A stretch of 43,715 bases of DNA from an uncultured Gammaproteobacteria bacterium (GCA_964373925.1 CAYJWS010000003.1:1-43715), one strand, 5' to 3'; positions 15,420 to 31,726 are shown, counted from the first letter of the stretch. Notes: generated from the sequence alone by a model not told the origin. Numbers and translations are program-made.

Positions 15420-15543
15420 AATTATATGTTCATAAATTTTTTTTCTTGGTAAGAATACTATAGCATAATTTTGTCAGCACATCAATCCATCAAATTTTTT
15501 TTAAGGTTGATTTAGTGCTAAAAATTTATTATAATAAACTTAA

Positions 15544-15667
15544 ATTACGAAATTCGCTCTTTATGTCATTCCCCCGAACGCTTTCGCGGGAATGACAGTA
15601 TTTCCTAGTTTTCTGGATCCTCCCGAAAGCTATCGGGAGGATGACAATCTTAGAGAGTTTCGTGGTT
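15544..15667. repeat. Composite palindromic repeat, copy A1 (GTCATTCCCCCGAACGCTTTCG-type hairpins bracketed by AATTACGAAAyT-type termini)
   Basis: Hairpin tgtcattcccccgaacgctttcgcgggaatgacag at 15564-15598 and hairpin ggatcctcccgaaagctatcgggaggatgacaa at 15615-15646. Imperfect flanking inverted repeat aattacgaaattcgctct / agagagtttcgtggtt. Confidence 0.8.
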
Positions 15668-15718: not shown

Positions 15719-17344
15719 ATGAATAGCCAGAAATTTCACACAATACAAAAAATTTTAAAAAAAAATACTTTTTTGCCATATTTTATAATATTTGAAGTGG
15801 CGTTTATAGTCTTTTATTTCTTGCAAAACCAGCTGACATTTGCCGATCCCGACTCTTTCTATCACGTGAAAATGGCAATGCTCATGAAAGAACGCGGCAT
15901 CATTAGGGATTTCCCATGGCTTCAATTCACTATACTTAAAAATTATTATACCGACCATCATCTCCTCTATCATATCGCGCTTATTCCTTTTGTTTCCATC
16001 TTGCCGCCGCTTGTCGGAGTAAAGCTCGCGACGATTATTTTTTCAAGCCTGGCAATCACAGTATTTTATTGGCTACTAAGAAAGTTCGAAGTGCGCGGCG
16101 CGTGGTTTTATGCACTTGTTTTAATGGTGAGCGCTTCGTTTATCTTTCGAATTAATCTCGCGAAAGCCCAGTCGCTTGCGTTGATAGCTTTCTTGATAGG
16201 ATACTATCTCATAGAACAGAAAAAAATATACAGCCTTATAATTTTTTCTTGTATCTATGTGTGGCTGTATGGCGGGTGGCCGCTTATTTTCGTGGTTTTT
16301 GGAGTATATTTTTTTGCTGGGCTTGTATTTCAGTTCAAGTCACATAGAAAAAATTTAGCAAACAGGATTAAAGAATTTTTTTTTGGCACGCATTATTATC
16401 TTGATACGAAACGAATGTTTCAATGGGTGCGGTCGCAGCATAAAAGCCTTGCCGCGATATGTGTCGGGATTGTAGCCGGCCTTGTTATCAACCCTTATTT
16501 TCCCAAGAACTTATTTTTTTATTGGTATCAGATAGTCCATGTCGCGGTTATCAACTATAAGGGAAAAATCGGCGTTGGAGGAGAGTGGTATGGCTATAAT
16601 CCAATTGAGCTTATCTCAAGCTCAAGCCTCGCATTTATCGTGGCAATTGTGGCATGCACGTTTTTTGTTCTTGCCATTAAAAAGCAGACGATACGCTCAG
16701 TGAGCCTCATGTTTTTAACGGTGACTTTTTTTATTCTCACCATAAAATCGCGAAGAAACGTGGAGTATCTTATTCCTACCATGCTTCTCTTCTCGGGAGT
16801 TTCACTCACCATATTTGCCGATACCGTGAACATAAAAAATTTTTACAAGGAGCTCAAGAGTTTTTTCATGGAACAAAAAATACTTTTTATAGCAGCTCTT
16901 ATTCCCTTGTTTCTTATTCCCTATGTTATCGGACGCGATTATATGGTGGTGAGGGGTATTTATGGCGATGGGCAGAAATTCGACAAGTACAAGGGGGCGC
17001 TTGAGTGGCTTGAGGGAAATAGTCCGAAAAACTCCATTGTATTTCACAGTGACTGGGATGAGTTTCCAATACTTTTTTACCACAACACCCATAATTACTA
17101 CATTGTCGGCCTTGATCCAACCTTTATGTATGACTACGACCAGAATTTATACAGAAAATGGAAAGACGTTACTACGGGGCAGGAAAAGTCAAATATGTAT
17201 TCAATTATTAAAAACGATTTTCGGTCGGAGTTTGTTTTTGTATCGCTTGATAGGCATGAGAGCTTTGACAACAATCTAAAAGATAATTTTTTATTTGAGA
17301 AGGTGTTTCAGGATGGAAAATTAAAAATTTACAAGGTGCTCTAG
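15719..17344 (+). CDS. Polytopic membrane protein, GT-C-fold glycosyltransferase-like (STT3/AglB/ArnT-like)
   Basis: 541 aa with at least 11 hydrophobic segments followed by a soluble C-terminal domain. Acidic first-loop motif ADPDSFYHVKM resembles the D-x-D loop of GT-C enzymes. First gene of the operon. Confidence 0.55.
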   Translation: MNSQKFHTIQKILKKNTFLPYFIIFEVAFIVFYFLQNQLTFADPDSFYHVKMAMLMKERGIIRDFPWLQFTILKNYYTDHHLLYHIALIPFVSILPPLVGVKLATIIFSSLAITVFYWLLRKFEVRGAWFYALVLMVSASFIFRINLAKAQSLALIAFLIGYYLIEQKKIYSLIIFSCIYVWLYGGWPLIFVVFGVYFFAGLVFQFKSHRKNLANRIKEFFFGTHYYLDTKRMFQWVRSQHKSLAAICVGIVAGLVINPYFPKNLFFYWYQIVHVAVINYKGKIGVGGEWYGYNPIELISSSSLAFIVAIVACTFFVLAIKKQTIRSVSLMFLTVTFFILTIKSRRNVEYLIPTMLLFSGVSLTIFADTVNIKNFYKELKSFFMEQKILFIAALIPLFLIPYVIGRDYMVVRGIYGDGQKFDKYKGALEWLEGNSPKNSIVFHSDWDEFPILFYHNTHNYYIVGLDPTFMYDYDQNLYRKWKDVTTGQEKSNMYSIIKNDFRSEFVFVSLDRHESFDNNLKDNFLFEKVFQDGKLKIYKVL

Positions 17345-17352
17345 CCATTATT

Positions 17353-18078
17353 ATGAAAATACTCATCGTGCTTCCGGCATACAATGAAGAAAAGATAATC
17401 CGAAAAAATATTATTATACTATATTCGTACATGGAGAAGAATTTTCCCGCGTATGATTGGAACATTATCGTTTCAGACAATAATTCAAAAGATACAACCA
17501 AAGATATTGTTTTGGATACGGCCATATCCCATGCCCGTTTGAAATATTTTTTTGTTCCAGAAAAAGGAAAGGGTGTTGCTATTCGCAGGGCGTGGGAGGC
17601 TCATGACGCCGATATATATTGTTTTATGGACGCGGATCTATCAACAGATATTGAGGCATTGCCGCTTCTTATTGGCGCAATTGAAAAAGATGGTTACGAC
17701 GTCGCGTGCGGTTCGCGGACGCACAAAGATTCAAAAGTTGAGCGCTCTGGTGTCCGAAGGCTCGTTTCTTTTGGATATAGAATAATTTTGAAGCTTGCAT
17801 TTAGCCTTTCCGTTGGCGACGCGCCATGCGGATTTAAGGCAATAAACAACAATATAAAAAAATACATACTTCCGAAAGTTCAAAACAACGAATGGTTTTA
17901 TGACAGCGAACTCATAATTCTTTCGGAGAAATCCGGATACAAAATACAAGAGATCCCAGTTCACTGGAACGGCCAAGAAGAGGCGGGAAGGGTGAGTAAG
18001 GTAAATATTTTTTCTTTAAGTATTGAATATATTAAAAAAGTGTTTGAGCTGTATTTCAGGATCAAAAAGGGAGTTTAA
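17353..18078 (+). CDS. Glycosyltransferase family 2 (polyprenol-phosphate glycosyltransferase-like)
   Basis: KILIVLPAYNEE, SDNNSKD and MDADLS (DxD) motifs. 241 aa. Confidence 0.85.
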   Translation: MKILIVLPAYNEEKIIRKNIIILYSYMEKNFPAYDWNIIVSDNNSKDTTKDIVLDTAISHARLKYFFVPEKGKGVAIRRAWEAHDADIYCFMDADLSTDIEALPLLIGAIEKDGYDVACGSRTHKDSKVERSGVRRLVSFGYRIILKLAFSLSVGDAPCGFKAINNNIKKYILPKVQNNEWFYDSELIILSEKSGYKIQEIPVHWNGQEEAGRVSKVNIFSLSIEYIKKVFELYFRIKKGV

Positions 18079-18080
18079 AT

Positions 18081-18947
18081 ATGTTTTCAAGTCAACAAGA
18101 TTTTTTAAGTATCATTATCCCCGTATATAACGAGGAGAAAATAGCTCGCGAGTTTTTTGAAAAGCTAAAGCAAGAGATGCGAAAACGTGTTATCAATTAC
18201 GAAATAATCGCGGTGAATGATGGATCAGAAGACCATTCGCATGAAATACTTAAAAGCATTAAGGATATTTTAGTCATTCACAATCCTTATAATCTGGGCT
18301 ATGGAGCGTCTTTAAAAAAGGGTTTGAAAGCAGCTCATGGAAACTGGGTTTTAATAATGGATAGCGATGGCACCTATCCCGTAGAAAGAATTTCTGATTT
18401 ATTGGAGTACACCAATGTCTATGATATGGTTGTTGGAAACAGAAATCACAAAAAAGACGCTCTGGGCAGAAAGCCGGCAAAATGGATTTTAAAAAAACTC
18501 GCCAGCTTTCTCGTGGGGCGCGATATTCCCGACCTCAACTCCGGCATGCGCGTGTTTCGCAAAGACCTAGCTTTGGAGTTTTTCGATCTTTATCCATCGG
18601 GATTTTCTCTCACTACAACCATTACTATGGCATTTTTTGTGAATGATTATGCGGTTCGGTACGTCAGTATCCCATACTATAAGAGAGTGGGGGACTCTAG
18701 TATACGGCCTTGGCATTTTTTTGATTTTATGGCGCTTGTAATGAAGCTTATTTTATATTTTAAGCCGCTTAAAATGCTTTTTATTCCAATAATTTTTCTT
18801 TTTTCTTTGGGTGTTGCCAAGGCCATAAAAGACATTATAACCATACGTTCCATTGGCAACCTCGCGCTTATTCTCATTGTATTTTCTTTTCAGATTCTCA
18901 CCATGGCGCTTGTTTTAAAGATTATTACCAAAAAGAATCTACAATAA
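18081..18947 (+). CDS. Glycosyltransferase family 2 with C-terminal transmembrane helices (GtrB/DPM-like polyprenol-phosphate glycosyltransferase)
   Basis: LSIIIPVYNEE, VNDGSED and MDSDGTYP motifs, plus two C-terminal TM helices. Confidence 0.85.
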   Translation: MFSSQQDFLSIIIPVYNEEKIAREFFEKLKQEMRKRVINYEIIAVNDGSEDHSHEILKSIKDILVIHNPYNLGYGASLKKGLKAAHGNWVLIMDSDGTYPVERISDLLEYTNVYDMVVGNRNHKKDALGRKPAKWILKKLASFLVGRDIPDLNSGMRVFRKDLALEFFDLYPSGFSLTTTITMAFFVNDYAVRYVSIPYYKRVGDSSIRPWHFFDFMALVMKLILYFKPLKMLFIPIIFLFSLGVAKAIKDIITIRSIGNLALILIVFSFQILTMALVLKIITKKNLQ

Positions 18948-18953
18948 AATACT

Positions 18954-19718
18954 ATGGATAGGTCTGAACGCGAAATTGCGCTTCATAAGATTATTTATAA
19001 AGATTATATCGAGCGAAGGAAGAATCCTGTGTGTAGGCTTGTTGATCATTTTTGGTATAGAGAAATGATGCGTGAGATTGTAATTTATGCAAAAAAACAA
19101 AAAATAAAAATTATTGATCTCGGAGCGGGCACATGTTTATTTTTTGAAACGATTAAGGATAACCAAGATATTGATTATACGGGAGTTGATTCAAGCCAAG
19201 AGATGCTCAATTATGCCAGCTCTATTTATGGATCATTTCCCAACTTTCATTCTTTTGTAAAAAATTTAGATGGTGACTTTGCAATGCGCGAACAATACGA
19301 CGTTTATGTCATGAGAAGCCTGGTGCACCACTTGGAACATAAAGATGAGTTTTTAAAAATGCTTATTTCCAGCATTCCTTCGGGAGCGCTTCTTGTTATC
19401 TCTGAACCCAATAAAAATTTTGCAACCCACGCGCTTCGGGAGCTTTTGAAAAAAATGAAAAAAGGGCATTTTGACCAGGATCATTATGACTTAAGCACTC
19501 AATACTTTTTAGAGCATTTTAAGAGAGATGATATATCTCTTTTAGGAATGAAATACTTTGGATATTTTTCTTACCCGTTTAGTTTCCCCTACATTCTTAA
19601 GCTCCCGATTCCCGCGTGGTGCATACGCCTGTTTATCCCCATAGACAGGATTTTGTCAAAATTGCCAATTATCAGGCGCTTGTCGTGGCATGTTATTTAT
19701 ATAGTACAAAAAAAATAA
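18954..19718 (+). CDS. Class I SAM-dependent methyltransferase
   Basis: Motif I IIDLGAGTC. Acidic post-I residue (GVDSSQEM). 254 aa. Confidence 0.78.
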   Translation: MDRSEREIALHKIIYKDYIERRKNPVCRLVDHFWYREMMREIVIYAKKQKIKIIDLGAGTCLFFETIKDNQDIDYTGVDSSQEMLNYASSIYGSFPNFHSFVKNLDGDFAMREQYDVYVMRSLVHHLEHKDEFLKMLISSIPSGALLVISEPNKNFATHALRELLKKMKKGHFDQDHYDLSTQYFLEHFKRDDISLLGMKYFGYFSYPFSFPYILKLPIPAWCIRLFIPIDRILSKLPIIRRLSWHVIYIVQKK

Positions 19719-19719
19719 A

Positions 19720-22020
19720 ATGAATATCGCAAAGAAAATATTAAACGGTTCGATAGTTGAGTGGGTATTTCTCTTGTGGTTTATCTTCGTGTATTTTTCA
19801 TATATATATTTTCACGGAGCATTTTTTGAATTTATGGCCTTGTTTTTTGTGGGACTTATTTTGTTTGGATACGGATATTTCATGTTGAGTCGCTATAATT
19901 TTTCTCAATATATGGCGCGCTTGAAATGGCCGTTGTGGCGTTTTGCCGTTGTCATATACGCAGGAATAATTTTTTTGTCTCTCATTTTTTATTTAAGCAC
20001 CCACGCAGTTGGAAGCGGTTCCATTTTTCTCTATTGGTGGATATTTCTTTCAAAGATAGCGGTTCATATAACGGCAAGAATCGTTTTCTTGATCCTACTG
20101 TTAATTGTAAGCGCAGGTCTTGGAAAAAAGATGAGTAAAAAATTTATAGAATTTTCAAGTAATATCTTTGAAGATCTTATTTTTTGTTTTGGAATTGGCT
20201 TTATGGCAATCAACTATTTTGCATTTTTGGCGGTTGCACTTCATTTGCAATATCAAATATTATTGGCGGCATTAACGCTTGCTATAATAGTATATGTGCG
20301 CGATGATATTTTCTATTTTATAAAAAAAATTATTAATTTAGAAATATCATTCGAATTTCGATTATCAAAAAATATTGAGCATCTTAAAACGTATGCCATC
20401 ATTTTCACCATACTTTTTTTTATTTTTGCTTTTTTGGGGACGCTACTCGTCGTTCCCATAGATTACGATGATTTGGATATTTATTATAGCGTGCCACTTC
20501 TTTACAATCATTACAACGCTGTTATACCTTTTAATAATTCATTGGCAATGCTTGGCGGTTTCGTAATGTTTTTTTACGCATATATCAACACCTTGGTCGC
20601 GCCAGTGTTTGTATTATCAATTTCTTTCTTCTTTTTACTCTTGGTTTTATTATCATTATATGTTTTTGTAAGAAAAATATTTTCACAATCGCTTGCTTTC
20701 GCTACATTATTTTTAGCGGCCTCACTCCCCATGGGTGTACATTTTATCATGACGCAAAAAGTTGACTTTATATTAGCCTTTTACTCCATACTTTGTATAT
20801 TTGCTTTATTTTTATGGTTTTCTGGGCGCAATAAACAATATCTTATACTATCATCTCTGTTTTTAGGATTTGCTGTGTCCGTAAAGCTCACTGGTCTTTT
20901 TTTATTTTTGACGGTGTGTTTTTTTATGCTTGCCCTTGTTTTAGCGCGAAAGCAAAAATTAAAAGATGTTGTTATCTTCGCCATTGTCGCAATTATGATG
21001 TTTTCTCCCACTGCATTAATGAACTTTTATTATTATCTAAATCCTATCGCACCTTTAACTTTTGCTGGTTTGCCACGTACTCGATCTGAAACGGTTTTTA
21101 ACCAAGGACGGAGAGTGCATCTTTATGAAATTTTCAATACGTCTTTCGCAAAAGAACGCCTACGCGAATATACGCACCTCACGCGACAAAATCATCTGTA
21201 CGATTCAAGTATTAAAAATTTTTTTTGGAGGATATGGAATACCACAATAAACCAGCGTGGCTTTTCTTTTACGTATTCCGAAGTAACTCCGTATTTTCTT
21301 TCATTTTTGCCGCTTTTAGCCTTTTATTTTTTCCAGAAAAAACTTTATAGGAAAAAAAATATTTTATACCTTGCTATTATTTCTTTTGCGTATCTTGCGG
21401 TGTGGTTTACATTTGGAAACGAAAGGTCGTGGTATGGCATACCCGGAGTGTATCTGTTGTTTATTCTCTGCGCGATGGCTTTTGCAAACATCAAAAACAG
21501 AAAAGCACTGATTGCCTCTTTATTTTTAGCCGTTCTTTTTTTCGTGCGGACATTTTCTTTTTTTATTTGGATTATTTTACAAGATCATAATATTATGAAA
21601 TCTCCCCAAGAGATTTCATATGAAAAAATTATTGACACCACCGATCTTCCATTTTACAATTTTTTAAATCAAAAAATCATTCCCTATAATGTAGGAAAAA
21701 GAATCCTCATGATTAACGAGTCAAGAAATGCACTGATTTATGAGGCTGATAAAAATATTATATCAGATCAGTTTAATGTTTTTTGGGGAAAGATTTTAGA
21801 CGAATCACGTACGTTAGAAGAAGTGAAAGAAATTTTATTGCAACAAGACGTGTCGCATATTGTGTATTCTATTCGCGGAGAGAATTACGTCGCTTCGTTC
21901 GCAGGAAGAGAGAAAGAAAAGTATCGCCTTTTGCGCGACATGGATGTGTTTCATGAGTTTAGAGAAAAATTTTTAACCGAAGTGCGCTGCGAAGACGAGT
22001 TTTGCATATATAAAATATAA
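19720..22020 (+). CDS. Large polytopic membrane protein, GT-C-like (ArnT/PMT-like) with a C-terminal soluble domain
   Basis: 766 aa with more than 15 hydrophobic segments and a roughly 170-aa hydrophilic C-terminus. Start is 1 nt after the preceding stop. Confidence 0.55.
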   Translation: MNIAKKILNGSIVEWVFLLWFIFVYFSYIYFHGAFFEFMALFFVGLILFGYGYFMLSRYNFSQYMARLKWPLWRFAVVIYAGIIFLSLIFYLSTHAVGSGSIFLYWWIFLSKIAVHITARIVFLILLLIVSAGLGKKMSKKFIEFSSNIFEDLIFCFGIGFMAINYFAFLAVALHLQYQILLAALTLAIIVYVRDDIFYFIKKIINLEISFEFRLSKNIEHLKTYAIIFTILFFIFAFLGTLLVVPIDYDDLDIYYSVPLLYNHYNAVIPFNNSLAMLGGFVMFFYAYINTLVAPVFVLSISFFFLLLVLLSLYVFVRKIFSQSLAFATLFLAASLPMGVHFIMTQKVDFILAFYSILCIFALFLWFSGRNKQYLILSSLFLGFAVSVKLTGLFLFLTVCFFMLALVLARKQKLKDVVIFAIVAIMMFSPTALMNFYYYLNPIAPLTFAGLPRTRSETVFNQGRRVHLYEIFNTSFAKERLREYTHLTRQNHLYDSSIKNFFWRIWNTTINQRGFSFTYSEVTPYFLSFLPLLAFYFFQKKLYRKKNILYLAIISFAYLAVWFTFGNERSWYGIPGVYLLFILCAMAFANIKNRKALIASLFLAVLFFVRTFSFFIWIILQDHNIMKSPQEISYEKIIDTTDLPFYNFLNQKIIPYNVGKRILMINESRNALIYEADKNIISDQFNVFWGKILDESRTLEEVKEILLQQDVSHIVYSIRGENYVASFAGREKEKYRLLRDMDVFHEFREKFLTEVRCEDEFCIYKI

Positions 22021-22052
22021 GGTATAATACCATTTACCATTTTATTGTCATT

Positions 22053-22778
22053 ATGAAAATATCAGATTTTAGAACTTTTTTGCGTTTAATGAAAAAAAGA
22101 AACGCGAGTGAAGAGGACTATTTTGCCTTTCAAAATTTTCAGGCGGAACGAACACTTGAAGATATGGCGCGGCACAATGTATTTATGAATGGAAAAAAAA
22201 CGCTAGACCTCGGTTGCGGACAGGGCGGATATACCGAAGTTTTTTATAAACACGGCGCGCGCATCACAGCAACTGATTTTCATGAGCCGGCGCTTCTTCG
22301 TAAGCGACAGCCTGAAATACCTTGGTTTTTTTCTAACCTTAATGCGGGCATCGAAACACAGGGCACTTTTCAATTTATTTATTGCTGCTCGGTAATAGAG
22401 CATATAAAAAACCAAAATAAGCTTATTTCAGAAATATATCGGGTATTAGATAAAAATGGCGAGCTTATTTTGAGTTTTCCGCCTTTTTACGCACCCCTTA
22501 ATGGGGGACACGTGTACAGTCCGTTTCATTATTTGCCAGAGAAGTACGCAGTAAAAATAGCCAGTTTTATTCGAAGAGAAAATTATTCTTCTTACGAAAC
22601 AACCTGGGGAGATTGGGGTCTTTACAAAACCACTATTGGGTCGGTCAAAAATATGCTACAACAGAATAGATTTTCTAACATTACAACTTGGACAAAATAT
22701 TTACCAATCAATTTTTCACGAATTCCGTTAATGAATGAATGTTGTACATGGCACGTTGTTTTTTATTGCAAGAAATAA
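22053..22778 (+). CDS. Class I SAM-dependent methyltransferase
   Basis: Motif I LDLGCGQGGY, then ATDF, then VIEHI. 241 aa. Confidence 0.75.
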   Translation: MKISDFRTFLRLMKKRNASEEDYFAFQNFQAERTLEDMARHNVFMNGKKTLDLGCGQGGYTEVFYKHGARITATDFHEPALLRKRQPEIPWFFSNLNAGIETQGTFQFIYCCSVIEHIKNQNKLISEIYRVLDKNGELILSFPPFYAPLNGGHVYSPFHYLPEKYAVKIASFIRRENYSSYETTWGDWGLYKTTIGSVKNMLQQNRFSNITTWTKYLPINFSRIPLMNECCTWHVVFYCKK

Positions 22779-22781
22779 TTC

Positions 22782-23483
22782 ATGAAAATATATATCATCA
22801 TTCCAACGTATAACGAAAAGAATAACATTGAAAAGCTTCTGCGCCTAATTTTTAGTCTCGGCATAAAAAATCTTTGGGTGCTTGTAGTTGATGACAATTC
22901 TCCAGATGGCACAGGTGAGGCGGTTGAAGCGCTAAAAAAAGAGTTTCCTTTTCTCGATATTATTCATAGGGAAAAAAAGCTCGGGCTTGGCACCGCATAT
23001 GTCGCGGGCTTTACAAGAGTACTGCGTGAAGGGGCGGATCTTATCTTTGAAATGGACGCTGACTTCTCGCACGATCCAAACTATATACCAAAAATTCTTG
23101 AGGCCACAAACGAATGCGATCTTGTTTTAGGATCAAGATATACGCCGGGCGGGGGAGTAAAGAATTGGAATTTTTTTCGAAGACTCATCAGCCGTTTTGG
23201 AAACTTGTATGCGCAGATTATTTTAAGCGTTCCTATAAAGGATCTCACCGGAGGGTTTAAATGTTATACAAGAAAGATTTTGGAAACCATAGAATTGGAG
23301 AGTTTAAGTTCTATAGGATATAATTTTCAGATAGAAACAACATATAAGGCCTACAAGCGAGGATTTCGTATAAAGGAAATTCCAATCATATTTACCGAGA
23401 GAGCGCAAGGAAAATCAAAATTTAACATAGCCATAATTCTTGAAAGTTTTTGGAAAGTTATAGTATTGCGCCTATTTTCTTAA
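22782..23483 (+). CDS. Polyprenol-monophosphate mannose synthase-like GT2 (Dpm1/Ppm1-like)
   Basis: IIIPTYNEKNNI, VVDDNSPDGTG, EMDADFSHDP, GSRY and the C-terminal RAQGKSK motif typical of Dpm1-type enzymes. Confidence 0.86.
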   Translation: MKIYIIIPTYNEKNNIEKLLRLIFSLGIKNLWVLVVDDNSPDGTGEAVEALKKEFPFLDIIHREKKLGLGTAYVAGFTRVLREGADLIFEMDADFSHDPNYIPKILEATNECDLVLGSRYTPGGGVKNWNFFRRLISRFGNLYAQIILSVPIKDLTGGFKCYTRKILETIELESLSSIGYNFQIETTYKAYKRGFRIKEIPIIFTERAQGKSKFNIAIILESFWKVIVLRLFS

Positions 23484-23485
23484 AT

Positions 23486-25126
23486 ATGCTTAAACACATA
23501 TCTCAAAGAGAGTGGAAATTTTTTGGTGTTTTCTCGGCGATTCTTACGGCAATTTTGGCATTGCCGTTTTTGTATGCTTATTTTTCCACGCCACCAAATT
23601 TGTATTTTTCGGGACTCCATATGCTCGCGCCGGGAGATTATTCAGTCTATTTTTCCTATATAACGCAAGCGCAGAACGGGCATTTTCTTTTTCGCGATCT
23701 TTTTACAACAGAATCAACTTCTTATAATATAATAAATACGTTTTGGGTTTTCGCGGGAATTGTTGGAAATTTTTTTTCTTTGAGTCCGCAGTGGGCGTTT
23801 CAAGCCGCGCGCCTCATCTCCATACCTTTTTTGGTGTTTACTCTTTATATTTTTTTTAGCTATTTTTATCAAAGCGAAAAACATAGAAAATTCATTTTGA
23901 TATTTGCATGTTTCGCGTCCGGGCTTGGAGTTTATTTTTTGCCATTTTTTCCCATGGTACGCCAGATACAGACGGATCGAGTGATGCTCCCTCCCGATAT
24001 TTGGGTTTCGGAGTCAAATATATTTTTGAGCATGCTTCATTCCGGCCATATGGTCTTTTCTTTGGCGCTCACGGTAATAATATTTTTTTTAAGCATTCTT
24101 TTCGCGGAAAAAAAGAATTATTTGTTGAGCGCGTGTTCTGGAGTTGTTGCTTTAGCGCTTTTTAGTTTTCATCCGTTTCAGGCGCCGGTAATATTCGGAG
24201 TGCAGATATTTTTCGCATTGTATGAGAGCATAAAAAATAAAAAAATAGAAATTTCGTACATTACGCACATATTTTTAACCTTCCTTATCTCGTCGCCAAT
24301 GATTGCGTATTATATTTTTATGTTACAGTTTGATCCCATTACCCAAGAGAGGGCTGTCCAAAACATTAATCTTAGTCCACCGCTTTATAGCATGTTTATG
24401 GGCTTTGGGTTTCTTGGGGTGTTTGCATTAGCTGGAACTATTTTTTGTAATAAAACGCCAATGAGGGACAAGAGAAGAGATTTTTTAGTAGTATGGATTG
24501 TGGTCCAGCTTATGCTTATGTACGCTCCTCTTAATTATCAAAGAAGGCTTATAGAAGGGTTTTCCGTCCCTTTGATAATTTTGAGTTTTGATTTTATTAT
24601 TTTTGTGTATGACAAACTTAAGATCATAATTCGTTCAAATACATGGCGTTTTTTATTGCTTAATACATTAAACGCCATAATTATTTTTATTCTGATATTC
24701 TTACCTTCAAATATTTTTGTTTATAGCGCGGATTTTTTGCGATATATTAAAAAAGATTCCTACATATATTTTCCAAAAAAAGACATTGAGCCATTGTTGT
24801 GGCTCTCACATAAAAACAATGAAGGGGCGGTGCTCGCAGAGATTAATACAAGCCATTTTATCCCCGCTATAGCGGGAAAGCAAGTATTTGCGGGCCACAT
24901 GATAGAGACCGTTCATTTTTCAGAGAAACTTAAAGAGGTAAATGATTTTTTTCGCGATAATTCAAATGATAATGAAAAGATAGAATTTTTGAAAAAAAAT
25001 AATATCCGGTATGTGTACTACGGTCCGAAGGAAAAAGCACTTGGCAATTTTAAACCGGAAGAAAAAATATATTTAAAAAAAATTTTTATCAATACGGCCG
25101 TAATAATTTATGAATTTTCCCAATAA
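23486..25126 (+). CDS. Polytopic membrane protein, GT-C-like, translationally coupled to the Dpm1-like GT2
   Basis: 546 aa from the ATG at 23486, 2 nt after the preceding stop. Loop motif APGDYSVYFSYITQAQNG. Multiple TM segments and a C-terminal soluble domain. Confidence 0.55.
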   Translation: MLKHISQREWKFFGVFSAILTAILALPFLYAYFSTPPNLYFSGLHMLAPGDYSVYFSYITQAQNGHFLFRDLFTTESTSYNIINTFWVFAGIVGNFFSLSPQWAFQAARLISIPFLVFTLYIFFSYFYQSEKHRKFILIFACFASGLGVYFLPFFPMVRQIQTDRVMLPPDIWVSESNIFLSMLHSGHMVFSLALTVIIFFLSILFAEKKNYLLSACSGVVALALFSFHPFQAPVIFGVQIFFALYESIKNKKIEISYITHIFLTFLISSPMIAYYIFMLQFDPITQERAVQNINLSPPLYSMFMGFGFLGVFALAGTIFCNKTPMRDKRRDFLVVWIVVQLMLMYAPLNYQRRLIEGFSVPLIILSFDFIIFVYDKLKIIIRSNTWRFLLLNTLNAIIIFILIFLPSNIFVYSADFLRYIKKDSYIYFPKKDIEPLLWLSHKNNEGAVLAEINTSHFIPAIAGKQVFAGHMIETVHFSEKLKEVNDFFRDNSNDNEKIEFLKKNNIRYVYYGPKEKALGNFKPEEKIYLKKIFINTAVIIYEFSQ

Positions 25127-25144
25127 TAACAATTTTATTAAAAT

Positions 25145-26956
25145 ATGACCGCTGGAAATTTTTTCTACAATTTTTTTGGAACCATAATTTTTCTATTTCT
25201 TTTTTTGATTATGATATATGTCGTTGCCATCATTCAAAAAAAGAATTTAGTAAGTTTTATGAAAGGATTTTTTCTTCATAAATCTTCAGGGGTAAATCTG
25301 GCAGTTTTTCGGATAGCTGTTTTTTTTAGTATTTTATTTCTCGTTCCAAAAAAGGCGACATGGATGACTCTTTTGCCGAATGATTTTTTTCGTCCGCCGC
25401 CGGGTACGTCTTGGTTCGCGCAGTTTTTACCGCTAGATAGCGGTACTATTTCTGTGGCAACATTTTTATTTATACTATTTTCGGTGATGGCTATGGTTGG
25501 ATTTTTTTCAAGAACCTCGGCGTTCTTTGCTTTTTTATTGGGATTATATGTTTTAGGACTGCCACAGTTTTATGGCAAGGTAAGCCATGACACACATCAT
25601 CTCATTTGGTTTTCAGCGCTTTTAGCTGTTTCTCCATGCGGTGATATGTTTTCTCTTGATGCTGTTATTCGCGCTTGGAGGCGCCCAGAGGGGTATCGAG
25701 CCACCTTATCTTCATTATCTATCAAGCATGGAGCGCCAATCCGTTTTGCGTGGGCGCTTTTTGGGATTATCTATTTTTTTCCCGGACTATGGAAGTTAAC
25801 AACATATCAGACATGGATTTTTGGAGAAAGCGTCCGTCAGCATACTTATTTGGCGTGGATTTTTCAGGATATTGCACGGCCATTTTTTCGCTTTGATTAT
25901 TATCCAATACTCTATAGATCGATTGGCGCGGCTACTATACTCTTTGAATTAATTTTTTTATTTTTTATTTTTTTTAAGCCAACTCGTATTTTTATGGCGA
26001 TTTTTGGAATATTTTTTCATCTCTCTATTTATGTATTTATGGGTATTAATTTTTTACCACTTATCGCATGTTATGTGATATTTTTTGATTGGGAAAAAAT
26101 TTTTAAGAATATTGGAAAATTTATATTTAAAAATAAAGTATATTTTTTATATGATGGTAAGTGTCGAGTATGCAGAAAAACAATTGCCATAATACTTTCG
26201 CTTGACGTGCTACAGCAAATAGTTCCGATTGATCTTTATGATCAAGAATCTCAAAAGCACCATCACTTGCCCTTCATTGATCGAAACATTCTTTTAGAAG
26301 AGTTGCATTGTATTTTGAAAGAAAAAAGATTTAAAGGGTTCTACGCATATCAGGTCTTGGCGTTTCGCATTCCTTTTTTTTGGTGCATCCTTCCATTATT
26401 ACATGTCTCGTACGTGGAGAAGGCGGGAAAGGCGATATATAATCGAGTTGCAAAAAATCGAACATGCGAAATTGGGCTAGTTGATGCGGGAGTTATAAAT
26501 ATATCGCCAACACGCGATTATTTTCCAATGCAAATTTTTATTGTTTTTTTAATATTATTTATACCCAATATTTATGCCGGAGTAGGCGATATCAATTCTT
26601 GGCCATATTCTGTATACCCGACATTTCATGTATCTGACGATGACTTTCGGGAGGATGTTATGAATATCCGCGTATTTGATAATGATGGGAAAGAAATTGC
26701 CATAGATCTTAAGCCGATGAAACAAAAACTTGGTTTTGTAGACGTTCGATGGCTTGAGCGAGATCTTATTTTTATTCGCGATAAAGACGCACAGCAATAT
26801 TATATCAAAAAATATCTTGAAGTACTTAATACATTTAACGTGGTGCCGAAAGATGTTAAAATCATAGAATTTAGCCATGATCTTATTTGGATTGATCCAG
26901 ATAAAAAATCATTGAATCCAGTGAATAGGGATACTCTACTTAAGGTTTCTTTATAA
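25145..26956 (+). CDS. HTTM-domain (vitamin-K-carboxylase-like membrane domain) protein fused to a DCC-family thiol-disulfide oxidoreductase domain and a C-terminal soluble domain
   Basis: HTTM-like NLAVFRIAVFFSILFL, GFFSRTSAFFAF and LAVSPCGDMFSLDAV. DCC/DUF393 motif FLYDGKCRVCRKT (DGxCxxC). 603 aa. Confidence 0.65.
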   Translation: MTAGNFFYNFFGTIIFLFLFLIMIYVVAIIQKKNLVSFMKGFFLHKSSGVNLAVFRIAVFFSILFLVPKKATWMTLLPNDFFRPPPGTSWFAQFLPLDSGTISVATFLFILFSVMAMVGFFSRTSAFFAFLLGLYVLGLPQFYGKVSHDTHHLIWFSALLAVSPCGDMFSLDAVIRAWRRPEGYRATLSSLSIKHGAPIRFAWALFGIIYFFPGLWKLTTYQTWIFGESVRQHTYLAWIFQDIARPFFRFDYYPILYRSIGAATILFELIFLFFIFFKPTRIFMAIFGIFFHLSIYVFMGINFLPLIACYVIFFDWEKIFKNIGKFIFKNKVYFLYDGKCRVCRKTIAIILSLDVLQQIVPIDLYDQESQKHHHLPFIDRNILLEELHCILKEKRFKGFYAYQVLAFRIPFFWCILPLLHVSYVEKAGKAIYNRVAKNRTCEIGLVDAGVINISPTRDYFPMQIFIVFLILFIPNIYAGVGDINSWPYSVYPTFHVSDDDFREDVMNIRVFDNDGKEIAIDLKPMKQKLGFVDVRWLERDLIFIRDKDAQQYYIKKYLEVLNTFNVVPKDVKIIEFSHDLIWIDPDKKSLNPVNRDTLLKVSL

Positions 26957-27085
26957 TTACCTTGAATTACGAAACTCATATCTTATTAGTCCCTGAGCCC
27001 AGTCGAAGGGCTGCCTTGAGCCAAACAGTTATCCAACGACTAGCTCAGGAAATAATTTTTTTGCAGTTTCGTAATTCAAGGTAAT
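26956..27085. repeat. Palindromic element with perfect 21-bp terminal inverted repeats filling a convergent intergenic gap (copy B)
   Basis: attaccttgaattacgaaact at 26956-26976 is the exact reverse complement of agtttcgtaattcaaggtaat at 27065-27085. Inner inverted repeat tccctgagc...gctcagga. The termini touch both flanking stop codons. Confidence 0.85.
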
Positions 27086-29058
27086 TAAATAGATTTTATA
27101 AATATTGGCCGTGAGAGTATTGACTCATGTGTAATAGAGTTTTTTATTGAAAGATCTGAATCAAGATATACTCCGCCTTCGTCTATTGTAATAACCTCAA
27201 GATACATATCCAATTTTAAAGGCGTGTATTTTTCGGGAATATGCGGCCAATAATTTGTCTGAATAGTTGTATTCTCCTGCCAATCGCTTGTTGGATACAC
27301 GCCAGAACCCAATGGATATATTTTTTCATATATTCTTTCTTTTTCTTCATTTGTGAAAAAGATTTTAATAAAATAGTTGTAATAAATATCTTGTTTTGTT
27401 TTCCAGTATAACTGTATCGGAACCATTTGATTTTTTATCTCGCCAATATTAAATCCCAAAAAATTTAAATCATCACCAATATCCGTGAACCGCTCGGCAT
27501 CAATATTTTTTGGAGAATTTTCTATAATTTCGTAAAGCTTGATTTGTGTGTTTTCATTTTTTGAAAAAAGCACAATATCATCCAAAACGTCGGTGGCAAC
27601 AAAGCCATCCTGTTCTATTCTTTGGCGCACCCTTGAACTGCCGGATGCGAAGGTATTTTTATACAGGGGGCTGTCTCTATATTGTATTTCATAGGTTACG
27701 AAATCCGAGAGATTCATAAGAAGGTATTCGGTGTCAGAAGGAAGTATATATTCTTTTTTTCCAAATTGCTCGGTTCCAATGAAAAAGTAGTTAAAACCGT
27801 ACACGCGCTCTCTTCCGGAAACCGAAGAAAGCATATCGTAGGATACCGCCACCGCTGCATCGACGGGAATTTTTTTTATAAGCAATGTCTTATAAGAATT
27901 CATTTTTTTGTCCATTCCAAAAATATCTTTTTGAACAGTTCCAATTACAGGGCCCAGTGTGAGCGAGCTGTATACAACGGCGACAATAAGAATAATTTGC
28001 CCTAAACGTTCTTTGAAAAATATTTTTATAAGCGGATTTTTCGGCTGCATTGTTTGAAGCGCCTTAAGTGAGGCGATAAAAGCTAAAAACAGAGAAGGCA
28101 AAAATAGGGCGGAGTATTGGGTCTTCAAGACAAGTCCGCTAGGTCCCGCGGAGCCTAAAAGAATCTGCGCGTATGGCAGGAGCGATAATAACAAATATCG
28201 GGGTCGTATCAAAGATATGAATGCAAAAGGCAAAAGAAGTCCCAAGACCATTTCAATGTTCCCTATGCTCAAAAGCCGAATAATAATTATCCATGGATGA
28301 AAAAAAAAGAATTTTATGGCCTCAAGCCAATTGTCTCCAAGCCATGAGTAGTATATAAAAAATTTATACCCTTCGTTTCCGTTAAAAAAGCTTATTATCT
28401 TTATTGAAAAGAAAAAATAGAGTACGGCAAGTATTGTTGGCGCGAAAATCCATATTTTCTTTTTTTTCTCAAGCAACGCGAGCGCGCCAAACATAAAAAC
28501 TATAAGCGATATGTCTTCGCGGATAACAAGCGCGAGAGAGGCAAAAAGAATAAATGCCCACAATCTATTTTTTTCAAAATAATAAAAAGCAAAAAAGAGA
28601 AAGACCAGCGCGAACGGCAAAAACGAAAATTCAAACAGCATGAGGCTATGAACCATGGGGTTGAAGAGCCACGCGCACGATATGCAAAGAGAAATATTTT
28701 GAGAAAAACGATTTTTTACAATGAGATATATCGGCCAGACAGGAAGAGTAACGGCGATAATTTGTAGTACGAGAAGTGTTAGAGCGCTTTTTTTAATAAG
28801 ATAGAGCGGAAGAAGGATAAAGAGAATGGGGCTGAAATGATCTTTTAGATATGTCGGGGGATGAATGGTTGATTGAAAAAAGTTTCCAACGCTTGAGTTG
28901 TAAAAAACCTGATGAATAATGGCGAGGTCTAAGCCATTGTATTGAAAGTTATTGAACTTCGCTATCGCGAGAAAGCTAAAAAAAGCGGCAAAGACCGCTT
29001 GTATGGCAAAGAGAATTATGAGGGGGGTTGTTTTTGGATTTGATGGCAGGTGAAGCAT
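27085..29058 (-). CDS. DUF2079-like polytopic membrane protein (putative GT-C-like)
   Basis: NGLDLAIIHQVFYNS...LKDHFSPILFILLP matches the remembered DUF2079 N-terminal signature. Many TM segments and a roughly 270-aa soluble C-terminus. The first ATG is at 29058; the track start at 29073 is a TTG. Confidence 0.65.
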   Translation of the reverse strand: MLHLPSNPKTTPLIILFAIQAVFAAFFSFLAIAKFNNFQYNGLDLAIIHQVFYNSSVGNFFQSTIHPPTYLKDHFSPILFILLPLYLIKKSALTLLVLQIIAVTLPVWPIYLIVKNRFSQNISLCISCAWLFNPMVHSLMLFEFSFLPFALVFLFFAFYYFEKNRLWAFILFASLALVIREDISLIVFMFGALALLEKKKKIWIFAPTILAVLYFFFSIKIISFFNGNEGYKFFIYYSWLGDNWLEAIKFFFFHPWIIIIRLLSIGNIEMVLGLLLPFAFISLIRPRYLLLSLLPYAQILLGSAGPSGLVLKTQYSALFLPSLFLAFIASLKALQTMQPKNPLIKIFFKERLGQIILIVAVVYSSLTLGPVIGTVQKDIFGMDKKMNSYKTLLIKKIPVDAAVAVSYDMLSSVSGRERVYGFNYFFIGTEQFGKKEYILPSDTEYLLMNLSDFVTYEIQYRDSPLYKNTFASGSSRVRQRIEQDGFVATDVLDDIVLFSKNENTQIKLYEIIENSPKNIDAERFTDIGDDLNFLGFNIGEIKNQMVPIQLYWKTKQDIYYNYFIKIFFTNEEKERIYEKIYPLGSGVYPTSDWQENTTIQTNYWPHIPEKYTPLKLDMYLEVITIDEGGVYLDSDLSIKNSITHESILSRPIFIKSI

Positions 29059-29732: not shown

Positions 29733-30254
29733 ATGAAGGTCACAACGTTTTCTTGCTTTGTAATAATTGGTTGTGTTTTCTTGAATGGTTGCTACTACGC
29801 CCAGCTCTTTGACGGTAAGGCTCAATTTAGCGGTCAGGCAATTCCTGCCTCGGTTCTAGAGCTTGTGGAAGCGCAAAGGCTTCAGTCGTTCACACAAGAG
29901 CAGGTCGCGGCTCTTCATGAGCTACAGGAACCCCAGAAGCGATCCCGACAAGATGTCTATGAAGACGCGACGTTTATTCAGACGCTTATGGATGGGCGAT
30001 ATGCTTCTGGAACCATTTCAAACAGAATAAACGAAGGCATCACGCTTGATATTTTTGAGCAAGATGACGATGGCAATAAGAGTAGGTTCGTCCAGCGGCT
30101 CTATCTCGGTCCTCGCGAAAAGATTTCCTATTTGCTTGAAAATGGCAAGAAATACATTTTTGAGTATTGGGAAAAAAATTTCGTCCACCCCAAGACCTGG
30201 AAGTTTCAAAACCCAGCACAAAGAGGCTGGGTGTGCGCATACGCACCGGCGTAG
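29733..30254 (+). CDS. Hypothetical lipoprotein
   Basis: Signal peptide with lipobox-like FLNGC (MKVTTFSCFVIIGCVFLNGCYY). Has its own promoter, SD and terminator. Visibly GC-richer than its neighbours. No recognisable domain. Confidence 0.65.
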   Translation: MKVTTFSCFVIIGCVFLNGCYYAQLFDGKAQFSGQAIPASVLELVEAQRLQSFTQEQVAALHELQEPQKRSRQDVYEDATFIQTLMDGRYASGTISNRINEGITLDIFEQDDDGNKSRFVQRLYLGPREKISYLLENGKKYIFEYWEKNFVHPKTWKFQNPAQRGWVCAYAPA

Positions 30255-30337: not shown

Positions 30338-30439
30338 TGTCATTCCCCCGAACGCTTTCGGGGGAATCCAGATTTTTCGCCGAAACTTGTGGATCCCCGC
30401 TGGAGTTTACCCTCATAAAAATGGGGGCGAGGATGACAA
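30338..30439. repeat. Composite palindromic repeat, copy C (three hairpins closed by TGTCAT(T)CC / GGATGACA)
   Basis: tgtcattcccccgaacgctttcgggggaatcca...tggatccccgctggagtttaccctcataaaaatgggggcgaggatgacaa. It is the inverted counterpart of copy F at 41173-41273. Confidence 0.85.
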
Positions 30440-30458: not shown

Positions 30459-30890
30459 TTATGGGCCAGTTGGCGTGCCTTGCCCGTTGGTGGATAGCCA
30501 GTAGAGCACAAAATAGGCGATGGCGTAGGATGATAGGGTTATAATAAGCCCTATGATAGAGTGCCTAATTATTCCTCGTGCTCTATCTATCTCATTATCG
30601 TTTCCTCTGGCCATCATCCACACATATCCTCCAAAGAAAATAAGTCCTAAAAATACTATGGCAAGCACCGAGAGAAATGCTTGAATGACGGTTGCGACAA
30701 GTCCTGGCAGAGAGATGGGTTGAAATCCGATTTTTCCTATGAAGCTGTTAACTTTATTGTTGATATTTGACCCCAGTTCTTCTTTAAAAACAGGATTTTG
30801 CTGGGCGCTGATTGCTATAATGTTCGCGAACAATACGGAAGAAACAATGGCGCCGTTTTGAATATATTTTTTTACGTTTTTTATTTTCAT
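30459..30890 (-). CDS. VirB2/TrbC-like pilin-type protein, paralog P2
   Basis: Signal peptide ending AISAQQ. Loop GGYVWMMARGNDNEIDRARGIIRHSIIGLIITLSSYAI. Confidence 0.75.
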   Translation of the reverse strand: MKIKNVKKYIQNGAIVSSVLFANIIAISAQQNPVFKEELGSNINNKVNSFIGKIGFQPISLPGLVATVIQAFLSVLAIVFLGLIFFGGYVWMMARGNDNEIDRARGIIRHSIIGLIITLSSYAIAYFVLYWLSTNGQGTPTGP

Positions 30891-30899
30891 AAATATTTT

Positions 30900-31295
30900 T
30901 TATGGAGCCTGCGGAGCGAAAAAGATGCTACTCACCAAGAGCCAAATACTATATGACGCCGTAAGCACCACAAGCCCGATAATAGCGTCTTTGATTATTT
31001 TTTTTGCCTTATCTACCTCATTATCGTTCCCCCTCGCCATCATCCACACATATCCGCCGTATATTATAAGAATAATAAAAAGTATTCCAAGAAACGATAC
31101 AATAGTAAAGACCACTGTTCCGAGTGTTTCCGTAAATATAGTGTCCGGGTCTACATCGGTATTAAATCCTGCGCCATCAGCTACGCCGTTGAGCAGGGGA
31201 TTATTATTTAATGGATTTGCGGCAAATATCACCGATGGCAAGAGGATAAACGCCAAAAGGGATAGAAAAGCGGTTATTTTTATTTTTTGTATCAT
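30900..31295 (-). CDS. VirB2/TrbC-like pilin-type protein, paralog P3
   Basis: Start set at the ATG at 31295 (MIQKIKITAFLSLLAFILLPSVIFAANP), 4 nt after the P4 stop, giving 131 aa. Loop GGYVWMMARGNDNEVDKAKKIIKDAIIGLVVLTASYSI. Confidence 0.75.
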   Translation of the reverse strand: MIQKIKITAFLSLLAFILLPSVIFAANPLNNNPLLNGVADGAGFNTDVDPDTIFTETLGTVVFTIVSFLGILFIILIIYGGYVWMMARGNDNEVDKAKKIIKDAIIGLVVLTASYSIWLLVSSIFFAPQAP

Positions 31296-31299
31296 ATAT

Positions 31300-31722
31300 T
31301 TATTCTTGGAAAAGTCCGGCGCCAGATATAAGTGTTCCGATAAGGCGCGTGAGCGCGTACGCCATGCCGACAATAACAACCCCAATAATAGAAGTTTTAA
31401 GAATTGCCTGCGCTTTTTCAACCTGGCTTTCATTTCCCTTGGCAGTCATCCAAAGAAATCCGGCATAGATAATGAGAATAATAAATATAACCCCAGTAAA
31501 TGCCAATGCAGAGCCGATAATTTGTCCGATAATCGTTCCCACCCTTTGTTGGGCGTCGTTTGGATCGGAGGTGTCAACGGGAACCATGCCAAGACCTTCC
31601 GCAATACGATGGAGCCTATTAAGCATCTTATCTTCTTCTTGCGCGTATGTTCTTCGCGCAAAAAATACGGTTGTTGCGGTTACGAGAATAGAGGAAGAAT
31701 AGTAATATATTTTTTTAAGCAT
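31300..31722 (-). CDS. VirB2/TrbC-like pilin-type protein, paralog P4
   Basis: Signal-like N-terminus ending TYAQEE. Loop AGFLWMTAKGNESQVEKAQAILKTSIIGVVIVGMAYAL. Confidence 0.72.
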   Translation of the reverse strand: MLKKIYYYSSSILVTATTVFFARRTYAQEEDKMLNRLHRIAEGLGMVPVDTSDPNDAQQRVGTIIGQIIGSALAFTGVIFIILIIYAGFLWMTAKGNESQVEKAQAILKTSIIGVVIVGMAYALTRLIGTLISGAGLFQE

Positions 31723-31726
31723 AGAA

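Follow-up and report, generated by a model that had tools for sequence, protein, structure and literature searches.

The subject of this analysis is a block of genes at 15719–29058 of a 43,715-nt stretch of DNA (GCA_964373925.1, CAYJWS010000003.1:1-43715; hereafter the window, meaning the whole stretch that was analyzed), which is predicted to encode an extracytoplasmic glycosylation locus of a member of the Patescibacteria (the candidate phyla radiation, CPR). Nine plus-strand genes, g1 to g9, are packed at 15719–26956 with successive intergenic gaps of 8, 2, 6, 1, 32, 3, 2 and 18 nt. The end of g9 faces a convergent gene for a DUF2079 membrane protein, g10 (27085–29058, minus strand), across a 128-nt gap, and g10 in turn sits 64 nt downstream of a co-directional pilin gene of the PF18895 family (paralogue P1; 29123–29578, minus strand). 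An initial annotation of the window had described this layout, and its genes, their order, the 1–32 nt gaps, the convergence on DUF2079 and the distance to P1 were all reproduced in the open reading frame (ORF) map. The glycosylation block spans ~10–13 kb here. The window opens with dnaA and dnaN (124–2889), which suggests that the origin of replication is near and that the locus lies ~15–35 kb from it.

Three of the nine genes, g2 (17353–18078), g3 (18081–18947) and g7 (22782–23483), encode glycosyltransferases with a Pfam GT2 domain (E = 2.1e-24 for g2 and 6.3e-32 for g3). The g2 product is a soluble DPMS-like protein, g3 carries two C-terminal transmembrane (TM) helices (residues ~223–279) and g7 is Dpm1/DPMS-like. 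The top Protein Data Bank (PDB) sequence match was the same for all three, namely the DPMS of Pyrococcus furiosus (5mlz), with E-values of 3.5e-38 for g7 (residues 1–222), 2.9e-15 for g3 and 1.8e-15 for g2. ArnC was the runner-up for g7 and g2, and in the g3 ranking ArnC (9hwj) came second, with more ArnC entries sixth and seventh after GtrB sll0501. The best NCBIfam matches of the GT2 proteins, polyprenol-phosphate glycosyltransferases without exception, were Dol-P-hexose transferase, AglJ, ArnC, PpgS and PgfS, the first three of which headed the g3 list, and a D-x-D motif is present in each protein (DAD at residue 93 of g2, DSD at residue 94 of g3 and DAD at residue 92 of g7). With a GT2 domain in all three and DPMS, ArnC and GtrB as best matches, their identification as polyprenol phosphate (polyprenol-P)-sugar synthase-like proteins, as first annotated, is well supported by sequence at the level of the family.

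The GT2 genes were found to pair with genes for membrane glycosyltransferases of the GT-C fold beyond the window as well as within it. A g2-type GT2 gene (35–57% identical) immediately followed g1 in 21 of 28 cases, and g2 is, from sequence, the likely polyprenol-P-sugar synthase partner of g1. In related genomes, orthologues of the g7 type (41–70% identity) adjoin g8 or another GT-C gene, and the phylogenetic co-occurrence of GT2 and membrane-protein genes that the initial annotation had made a test of its proposal was thus observed. The g3-type GT2 is scarce outside the lineage of the window.

The head gene of the conserved locus, g1 (15719–17344), encodes a 541-aa membrane protein that gave no Pfam, NCBIfam or PDB sequence match in either single-sequence or profile searches. 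More than 1093 homologues were recovered, all of them from Patescibacteria, all labelled hypothetical and none with a Pfam domain; when 45 members of the family were scanned with Pfam at E <= 1, no consistent family and no match to STT3 (PF02516) was obtained. The g1-family alignment (A1; 45 sequences, mean column identity 47%) showed invariant or near-invariant positions at D43-P-D45-S-F-Y-H after TM1, D79, F143-R144, G287-x-E289-W290, R346/Y350/P353 and W446-D447. The ADPDSFYH segment, in which conserved first-loop acidic residues had been anticipated, was located at residues 42–49, with D43 kept in 78/81 and D45 in 81/81 sequences. An AlphaFold2 model of g1 (pLDDT 91.2, pTM 0.91) contained ~13 long helices, N-in/C-out, followed by a C-terminal alpha/beta domain. 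Foldseek comparison of this model with the PDB returned 28 matches at E <= 0.001, every one a GT-C enzyme, in the order STT3/AglB/PglB (E 1.5e-10 to 4e-8, TMq 0.50–0.65), DPY19, ArnT, AftD, ALG9/12 and AftA. On this evidence we file g1 as a predicted GT-C enzyme, similar to class A, that represents a new sequence family.

The tail of the conserved plus-strand block is g8 (23486–25126), which encodes a 546-aa GT-C-fold membrane protein from an ATG start, with an upstream TTG at 23450. No Pfam or PDB sequence match was found for g8, a scan of 19 family members at E <= 1 revealed no consistent family, and a word-indexed search returned 19 homologues only. The D51 residue of g8 was invariant (55/55). 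The AlphaFold2 model (pLDDT 90.5, pTM 0.90) again comprised ~13 long helices and then a C-terminal alpha/beta domain, and all 25 of its Foldseek matches to the PDB at E <= 0.001 were GT-C enzymes, including STT3/AglB/PglB (E 9e-9 to 1e-4), DPY19, AftA (TMq 0.59) and ArnT. Over all significant GT-C matches of g1 and g8 (STT3, AglB, PglB, DPY19, ArnT, AftA, AftD, ALG9 and ALG12), TMq ranged from 0.43 to 0.65. Transporters appeared among the matches of the two models at E > 0.3 and probability < 0.15 only, and a transporter function for g1 and g8 was ruled out, their significant structural neighbours all being GT-C, as the initial annotation had supposed. The C-terminal modules of g1 and g8 are homologous (hhalign probability 96.6% over 194 columns); they share the last TM helices together with an SRR/QRR motif, as well as a small domain of the alpha/beta type whose end reads IYKV.

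Two further GT-C-like proteins are encoded at the locus. The 766-aa product of g5 (19720–22020) is of the PMT_2 type, with a match of 29.3 bits against a cut-off of 26.1 bits at residues 299–431 and an extra N-terminal block of ~six TM helices. Its first-loop motif is DYDDLD, in which D250, D251 and D253 were each kept in 8/8 sequences, and its C-terminal domain is weakly alignable to that of g8. This gene was found in 8/86 related loci and is lineage-restricted. The DUF2079 protein g10 (Pfam E = 1.9e-53) is encoded by the last gene in the direction of transcription of the pilin array. Profile–profile comparison by hhalign gave DUF2079 a probability of 80% against the g1 family (394 columns) and 64% against the g8 family (376 columns), with D49 of DUF2079, kept in 37/37 sequences, in register with D51 of g8. 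From these alignments g10 is a probable GT-C protein; Pfam also places DUF2079 in its GT-C clan. PDB searches for g1, g5 and g8, with single sequences as well as profiles, were empty or returned nanobody noise only, and sub-domain scans gave no match for the N-terminal six-TM extension of g5 or for the C-terminal domains of g1, g9 and g10. Hydropathy analysis indicated ~11–19 hydrophobic segments in each of g1, g5, g8 and g10, and an Asp in the first loop is common to all four families. On sequence comparison, g1, g8 and DUF2079 appear to be mutually related. The number of GT-C-like proteins, initially put at four or five, is accordingly four, g1, g5, g8 and g10; the fifth candidate, g9, is no GT-C.

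To survey the distribution of the locus, each GTDB species was represented by one genome and scanned by a motif search combined with tblastn. Relatives of g1 were present in at least 571 species genomes, and the best 80 g1-bearing genomes were all Patescibacteria, comprising Falkow-, Buchanan-, Kerfeld-, Kuenen-, Uhr- and Veblenbacteria and one Microgenomates. The host of the window is taken to be an ABY1/Parcubacteria-type Patescibacterium. Many g1-bearing metagenome-assembled genomes (L012, L020, L022, L028 and others) are titled 'uncultured Gammaproteobacteria bacterium' despite their Patescibacteria-type neighbours, and this title looks like a default or erroneous label.

For synteny, ORFs of related loci were classed with hidden Markov models built from the window proteins; gene calling was crude and the classes were iterated once. 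Counts out of 66 are for species loci in which 4 kb or more of sequence follows g1, and counts out of 86 are for the related loci as a whole. In the sister strains (g1 93% identical; 82–90% nucleotide identity) the same cluster is found in the same order, minus g6 and g9. The recurrent layout begins with leftward genes for GT4/GT5, APH, GH57 and the like, then RuvC and YebC; it continues rightward with, where present, a phosphoglucose or phosphomannose isomerase (PGI/PMI) gene, then g1, a variable cassette and g8; and it ends, leftward again, with DUF2079, a number of pilin genes and a solute-binding protein (SBP) gene. The variable cassette contains GT2, polytopic proteins and methyltransferases. 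YebC lay at most three genes upstream of g1 in 46/66 loci. Downstream of g1 were GT2 genes in 39/66, g8 in 38/66, DUF2079 in 35/66 and pilin genes in 41/66, while pilin genes were upstream of g1 in 1/66, so that the co-occurrence of the operon with pilin arrays, which had been put forward for checking, is found across species. DUF2079 was convergent with g8 in 27/37 cases and stood right after a co-directional pilin gene in 18/29. The recurrence of the gene order in the sister strains, and of its core in 66 species-level genomes, is not due to chance.

The interior of the locus is far from constant. Among related loci the number of GT-C-like genes ranges from 1 to 7 and that of GT2 genes from 0 to 3. 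When 87 otherwise unclassified polytopic proteins of these loci, mostly from the cassettes and a few from the flanks, were assigned to families, 23 matched GT87, 18 PMT_2, seven ALG3, six PMT, two Alg6/8 and one YfhO; four Wzx-type and two Wzy_C proteins were also present. The gene directly before g1 and co-directional with it encodes a bact-PGI_C/SIS isomerase, of the family to which bifunctional PGI/PMI belongs, in 44/76 species (loci L008–L083; for example, L011:8802-9869), and in one further species this position is taken by a mannose-1-P guanylyltransferase-like gene. The window has no PGI/PMI gene before g1 and has a 299-nt intergenic region there instead. The upstream PGI/PMI genes are a weak hint of a hexose or mannose donor, and the NTP_transferase gene that flanks the pilin array of the window was likewise counted in support of sugar supply. 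Tandem full-length g1 paralogues with 4-nt overlaps were observed at L051:1029-4135, L072:9938-12996, L077:8385-11419 and in L065; in the first three a pilin array comes straight after the g1 pair with no g8 or DUF2079 in the locus examined, and L065 ends in the second copy.

The accessory genes were identified by Pfam as originally annotated: g4 (18954–19718) encodes a class-I S-adenosylmethionine (SAM)-dependent methyltransferase (Methyltransf_23/12/31/25/11), g6 (22053–22778) a second one (Methyltransf_11 and related families), and g9 (25145–26956) an HTTM and DCC1-like fusion. While g4 is present in the sister strains, g6 is missing from all three (L001–L003), and neither the segment 22020–22762 nor the g9 segment 25092–27131 has a counterpart in sister strain L001. 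Homologues of g9 occurred in 0/86 related loci. Metagenomes commonly contain HTTM-DCC fusions of full length, with 616 cluster representatives at E <= 1e-30, but even the nearest to g9 is just 38–39% identical, and g9 looks like an acquired accessory gene. It was rejected both as a fifth GT-C and as a conserved component of the system, being a different kind of protein that is absent from the 86 loci and the sister strains. Because g6 and g9 are strain-specific, the nine genes do not make up a fixed functional operon, and their initial treatment as one unit was not upheld. The methylated glycan that had been suggested on the strength of g4 and g6 is likewise conjectural, since PDB and NCBIfam matches of both proteins were generic only, no substrate could be assigned from them, and g6 is a strain-specific insertion.

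The pilin array adjoining the block was also studied. P1 is a VirB2-like T4SS_pilin (PF18895 E = 9.2e-07) with a signal peptide and two TM helices, and seven further VirB2-like paralogues are encoded at 30459–34309 (minus strand). PF18895 was matched by all eight ORFs; six scores exceed the 26.6-bit cut-off and two fall just under it (32636–33025 with 25.0 bits and 33158–33529 with 23.7 bits). In related loci, 115/115 sampled pilin ORFs matched PF18895 and 26 also matched TrbC/VirB2. Upstream of the window's array lie genes for a sugar-type SBP and an NTP_transferase (34319–36587, minus strand), and SBP genes flank the pilin arrays in 20/22 sampled relatives. VirB2-like pilin arrays have already been described in Patescibacteria, with glycosylation unmentioned, and a related array is reportedly essential to a relative that has been brought into culture (PMC12102498). 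What sets the eighth paralogue (33683–34309, minus strand) apart from the other seven is an N-terminal extension rich in Cys (CCCAIDYSRCFDNPDPSCPADM...), together with three N-x-S/T sites. Between P1 and P2, on the opposite strand, lies a 173-aa ORF (29733–30254, plus strand; 172 aa in the sister strains) with no Pfam match, whose product is lipoprotein-like in having an N-terminal hydrophobic segment that contains Cys.

From the folds, families, motifs and gene order described above, we infer that the region is, quite probably, a modular extracytoplasmic glycosylation locus dependent on polyprenol-P sugars. The use of such donors is suggested because the GT-C genes adjoin DPMS-like GT2 genes. 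On the cytoplasmic face, g2, g3 and g7 would move a sugar from a nucleotide sugar onto polyprenol-P. The lipid-linked monosaccharides would then be flipped by a flippase encoded outside the window, and g1, g5, g8 and g10 would take them as donors and attach the sugars to one or several acceptors of the envelope beyond the membrane, the Asp in the first outer loop of each being of the catalytic type. The modules of this scheme would be g1 with g2 as the conserved core pair, g3–(g4)–g5 as a lineage-specific cassette, g7–g8 as a second recurrent pair, and DUF2079 expressed with the VirB2-like pilin array; g6 and g9 would be strain-specific additions outside the conserved machine.

Several points weigh against this scheme. 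The scan of the window ORFs turned up no flippase of the GtrA or Wzx type. The NCBIfam scores of the GT2 proteins lie far under every equivalog cut-off, so that their specificity for the sugar, and even for a lipid, is not fixed by these matches. By hydropathy, neither g2 nor g7 has convincing TM helices, g7 having a marginal C-terminal hydrophobic segment only; their association with the membrane, and hence a lipid acceptor, is assumed by analogy. Soluble DPMS-like enzymes that depend on a partner in the membrane have been described (PMC8035078). For DUF2079, the GT-C assignment is drawn from profile–profile probabilities that are moderate, and gene order near oriC in streamlined genomes may in part be inherited backbone order.

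The structural similarity of g1 to STT3, AglB and PglB, its best Foldseek matches, raises the question of whether it could be a true STT3-type oligosaccharyltransferase (OST), an enzyme that moves a ready-made, lipid-pyrophosphate-linked oligosaccharide as a block onto Asn in secreted proteins. The ~13 helices with N-in/C-out topology and the PglB-like order of D43/D45, R144, E289, R346 and W446-D447 would be compatible with that. However, when A1 was compared by hhalign with a profile of 18 genuine PglB sequences (A5, drawn from a set annotated as Pfam STT3 and with WWDYG invariant), the probability was just 9.8%, which is too weak for membership. The sole aligned segment, which speaks for the OST reading, placed S-R-R346-N-V-E-Y350-x-x-P353 of g1 on G-L-R375-F-T-I-Y379-x-x-P382 of PglB. 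In place of WWDYG, g1 has HSDWDEFP, in which W446 and D447 are invariant and D445 is kept in at least 90%. It is because of this low probability, the lack of WWDYG, the lack of any Pfam STT3 match in the family and TM-scores that are alike for STT3, DPY19 and ArnT that g1 was not filed as an STT3 member. Furthermore, its conserved partner is a DPMS-like monosaccharide synthase, and neither a phosphoglycosyl transferase nor a flippase, the genes of lipid-PP-oligosaccharide assembly, was found among the window ORFs scanned; an OST of this type is considered very improbable. Somewhat less so, but still unlikely, is the view that there is no single pathway and that independent GT2/GT-C pairs with unrelated acceptors have accreted near the pilins, kept together by low rearrangement near the origin. 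The wide range of cassette content, the gain or loss of g6 and g9 among strains at 82–90% nucleotide identity, the conservation of the entire neighbourhood from PBP1a to RuvC-YebC and the presence of dnaA 15 kb away would all fit such accretion. It is harder to reconcile with the end-points g1, g8 and DUF2079 being mutually related and kept while the interior turns over, and with an asymmetry of pilins upstream and downstream that persists in rearranged contexts.

The modular glycosylation locus is compatible with more than one acceptor, and two proposals were weighed. The GT-C enzymes might act in series to build up a glycopolymer or lipoglycan step by step, or to decorate one, as in the synthesis of actinobacterial lipomannan (LM), lipoarabinomannan (LAM) and arabinogalactan, or in the decoration of lipoteichoic acid (LTA), wall teichoic acid (WTA) and secondary cell wall polymers in Firmicutes; this is held to be a serious contender, if rather short of probable. 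It would account for as many as seven GT-C-like genes per locus and for cassettes made up mostly of GT87, PMT_2 and ALG3-like proteins, families typical of phosphatidylinositol mannoside (PIM) and LM assembly, together with the four Wzx-type and two Wzy_C proteins and MptA_B-family matches in L005 and L006. DUF2079 also weakly matches an NCBIfam family whose name refers to the forming of glycopolymers at the cell surface, the strong conservation of g1 suggests a conserved, non-protein acceptor, and a PBP1a gene belongs to the same conserved neighbourhood. Against it, no lipid-anchor or priming enzyme (PimA-like or phosphoglycosyl transferase) was identified in the window, no such polymer is known from these organisms, and the upstream GT4 genes probably lie outside the pathway. 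Alternatively, g1, g8 and DUF2079 might be dedicated to O-, N- or C-glycosylation of the exposed tails of the pilins, and maybe of other secreted proteins, from polyprenol-P-monosaccharide donors. This remains a tentative and somewhat doubtful proposal, favoured by the lopsided position of the arrays (downstream of g1 in 41/66, upstream in 1/66), by the uniform PF18895 content of the array ORFs, by the co-directional pilin directly before DUF2079, by the survival of the g1–pilin neighbourhood through upstream rearrangement (L036, L078, L079) and g1 tandem duplication (L051, L072, L077), and by the fact that the nearest structural relatives of g1 (STT3, AglB, PglB and DPY19) modify proteins. 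The pilins were named as obvious candidate acceptors in the initial annotation, and that suggestion gains support from conserved synteny with g1 and DUF2079 but not from a target site, since the eight window pilins share no conserved N-x-S/T sequon or Ser/Thr-rich tract. Moreover, conservation among the pilins is confined to the loop between the helices, which is expected from VirB2 topology to face the cytoplasm. No pilin lies within 10 kb in 25/66 loci, the synteny of the whole neighbourhood including PBP1a may be inherited backbone near oriC, and pilin paralogues are hypervariable (~25% identity, PMC12102498), against 40–60% conservation of g1. The array may hold candidate acceptors or mere conserved neighbours. 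Dividing the acceptor between the possibilities, a cell-wall or lipid-anchored glycopolymer is given the largest share, approaching an even chance, secreted or surface proteins including the pilins a somewhat smaller one, and a mixed or other acceptor the rest, which amounts to a slight preference for a non-protein polymer. The most far-reaching form of the protein proposal holds that g1, g8 and DUF2079 are an unrecognized Patescibacteria-wide GT-C machinery that glycosylates the hypervariable pilin arrays, or the surface structure derived from them, with polyprenol-P-monosaccharides from the paired GT2s, that g1 is a new STT3/DPY19-like family of protein glycosyltransferases, and that cassette turnover and pilin variation together tune host recognition or evasion in epibionts; it is speculative and we think it rather unlikely.

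The modular locus was next compared with characterized systems, the nearest of which are multi-component (GT2, flippase and GT-C) glycosylation in Gram-positive bacteria, whose scheme the proposed mechanism matches, and the Ppm1 pathway of actinobacteria. Multi-component transmembrane glycosylation in Gram-positive bacteria is represented by CsbB/GtcA/YfhO, GtlA/GtlB and the Lactococcus lactis CsdAB, CsdCD and CsdEF proteins with the flippase CflA (PMC8035078). As in those systems, a GT-A/GT2 gene of the kind that makes a C55-P-sugar adjoins a gene for a GT-C-fold transferase (PMC8035078), several GT2/GT-C pairs occur in one organism, and the GT-C proteins are very dissimilar in sequence and recognized mainly by their fold and first-loop Asp. 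The locus differs from them in that the window has no GtrA- or Wzx-type flippase, two of its three GT2 proteins lack TM helices, and its GT-C families are g1, g8 and DUF2079 rather than YfhO or GtrC. It is also a conserved cassette-like array of up to seven GT-C genes tied to VirB2-like pilins, in hosts that are not known to make LTA or WTA.

In actinobacteria, Ppm1 serves PMT, MptA, MptB, PimE, Emb and Aft enzymes, and the arrangement of a DPMS-like synthase that feeds many GT-C enzymes is similar to that proposed here (PMC5882110, PMC2157549, PMC12041525). GT87, PMT and MptA_B-type families of the PIM/LM/LAM pathway are found in related CPR cassettes, and AftA and AftD are among the structural neighbours of g1 and g8. 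Unlike that pathway, no phosphatidylinositol-anchor or priming genes were identified at the CPR locus, g1 and g8 are outside those Pfam families, and the host is a Patescibacterium with a reduced genome. The GT-C class A enzymes STT3/AglB/PglB and DPY19 gave the best structural matches of both g1 and g8 and resemble them in having ~13 TM helices followed by a C-terminal extracytoplasmic alpha/beta domain, a first-loop Asp and an Arg-x3-Tyr-x2-Pro helix motif, which hhalign put on R375 of PglB. Differences from STT3/AglB/PglB comprise, besides the missing Pfam match, the missing WWDYG and the hhalign result given above, a far smaller C-terminal domain of ~125 aa, and the partner gene points to a monosaccharide lipid donor, which is nearer to DPY19, PMT and ArnT than to the OSTs. 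In ArnC/ArnT, an undecaprenyl-P-L-Ara4FN synthase works with a GT-C transferase that modifies lipid A. The locus follows the same plan of synthase plus GT-C partner, ArnC being near g2, g3 and g7 in sequence and ArnT near g1 and g8 in structure; however, CPR hosts have no lipid A, Arn sugar-modification genes are absent and sequence identity is low. Papers on this CPR locus, on DUF2079 or on CPR enzymes of the GT-C type were looked for in the literature, and none was found.

Patescibacteria have tiny genomes and are mostly host-attached in their way of life, and to our knowledge almost nothing has been reported on their surface chemistry. That a large clade maintains a block with a predicted role in lipid-linked-sugar glycosylation near dnaA represents a large genomic investment, and its position beside VirB2-like pilin arrays raises a possible link to host contact. 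Two GT-C families that are invisible to Pfam and NCBIfam, one of them in at least 571 species, appear to be new, as do the conserved cassette-like architecture and its link to pilin arrays, while the enzymology itself is of a known kind. The candidate catalytic residues are concrete targets for questions on the cell coat and on pilus glycosylation, and the variable GT2/GT-C cassette may mark surface diversity at the level of strains.

Upstream of g1, a minus-strand block at 6889–14216 contains a GalT-like gene, a gene for a 658-aa protein, an APH kinase gene and three GT4 genes. In relatives (L004, L006 and many others), the position upstream of RuvC-YebC holds genes for GT5 glycogen-synthase-like, GH57, GH15 and APH (maltokinase-like) proteins. 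The upstream GT4 and APH genes are probably outside the envelope pathway because relatives hold these GT5, GH57 and GH15 storage-glucan genes there, and the block probably serves storage alpha-glucan or sugar metabolism. The 658-aa ORF (7817–9793, minus strand) encodes a soluble protein that lacks TM helices and matches no Pfam family. Gene calling puts its length at 622 aa in the sister strains and at 620 aa in L005, and in all of these the gene is conserved beside the APH-kinase and GT4 genes.

The G+C content falls to 0.34–0.37 over ~18000–28000, the part of the window rich in membrane proteins, compared with 0.40–0.43 in the flanks, and this dip could stem from the amino-acid composition of polytopic proteins or from a separate origin of the cassette. 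A motif scan of the operon was uninformative, as promoter-like sites were no commoner than in shuffled sequence and terminator-like sites fell inside genes. A hairpin core, CCCGAA-N-GCT-N-TCGGG, was present at seven intergenic sites (15564–15597, 15617–15642, ~30345–30364, 36616–36635, 36790–36809, 36845–36862 and 41241–41260), with 13 strand-matches against 0.01 expected, and this palindrome may be a REP-like or regulatory element. Two of these hairpins belong to the 5' leader of g1 and follow a promoter-like site at 15507–15535. Finally, a small GIY-YIG ORF (37108–37536) lies immediately upstream of tRNA-Ser(CGA).

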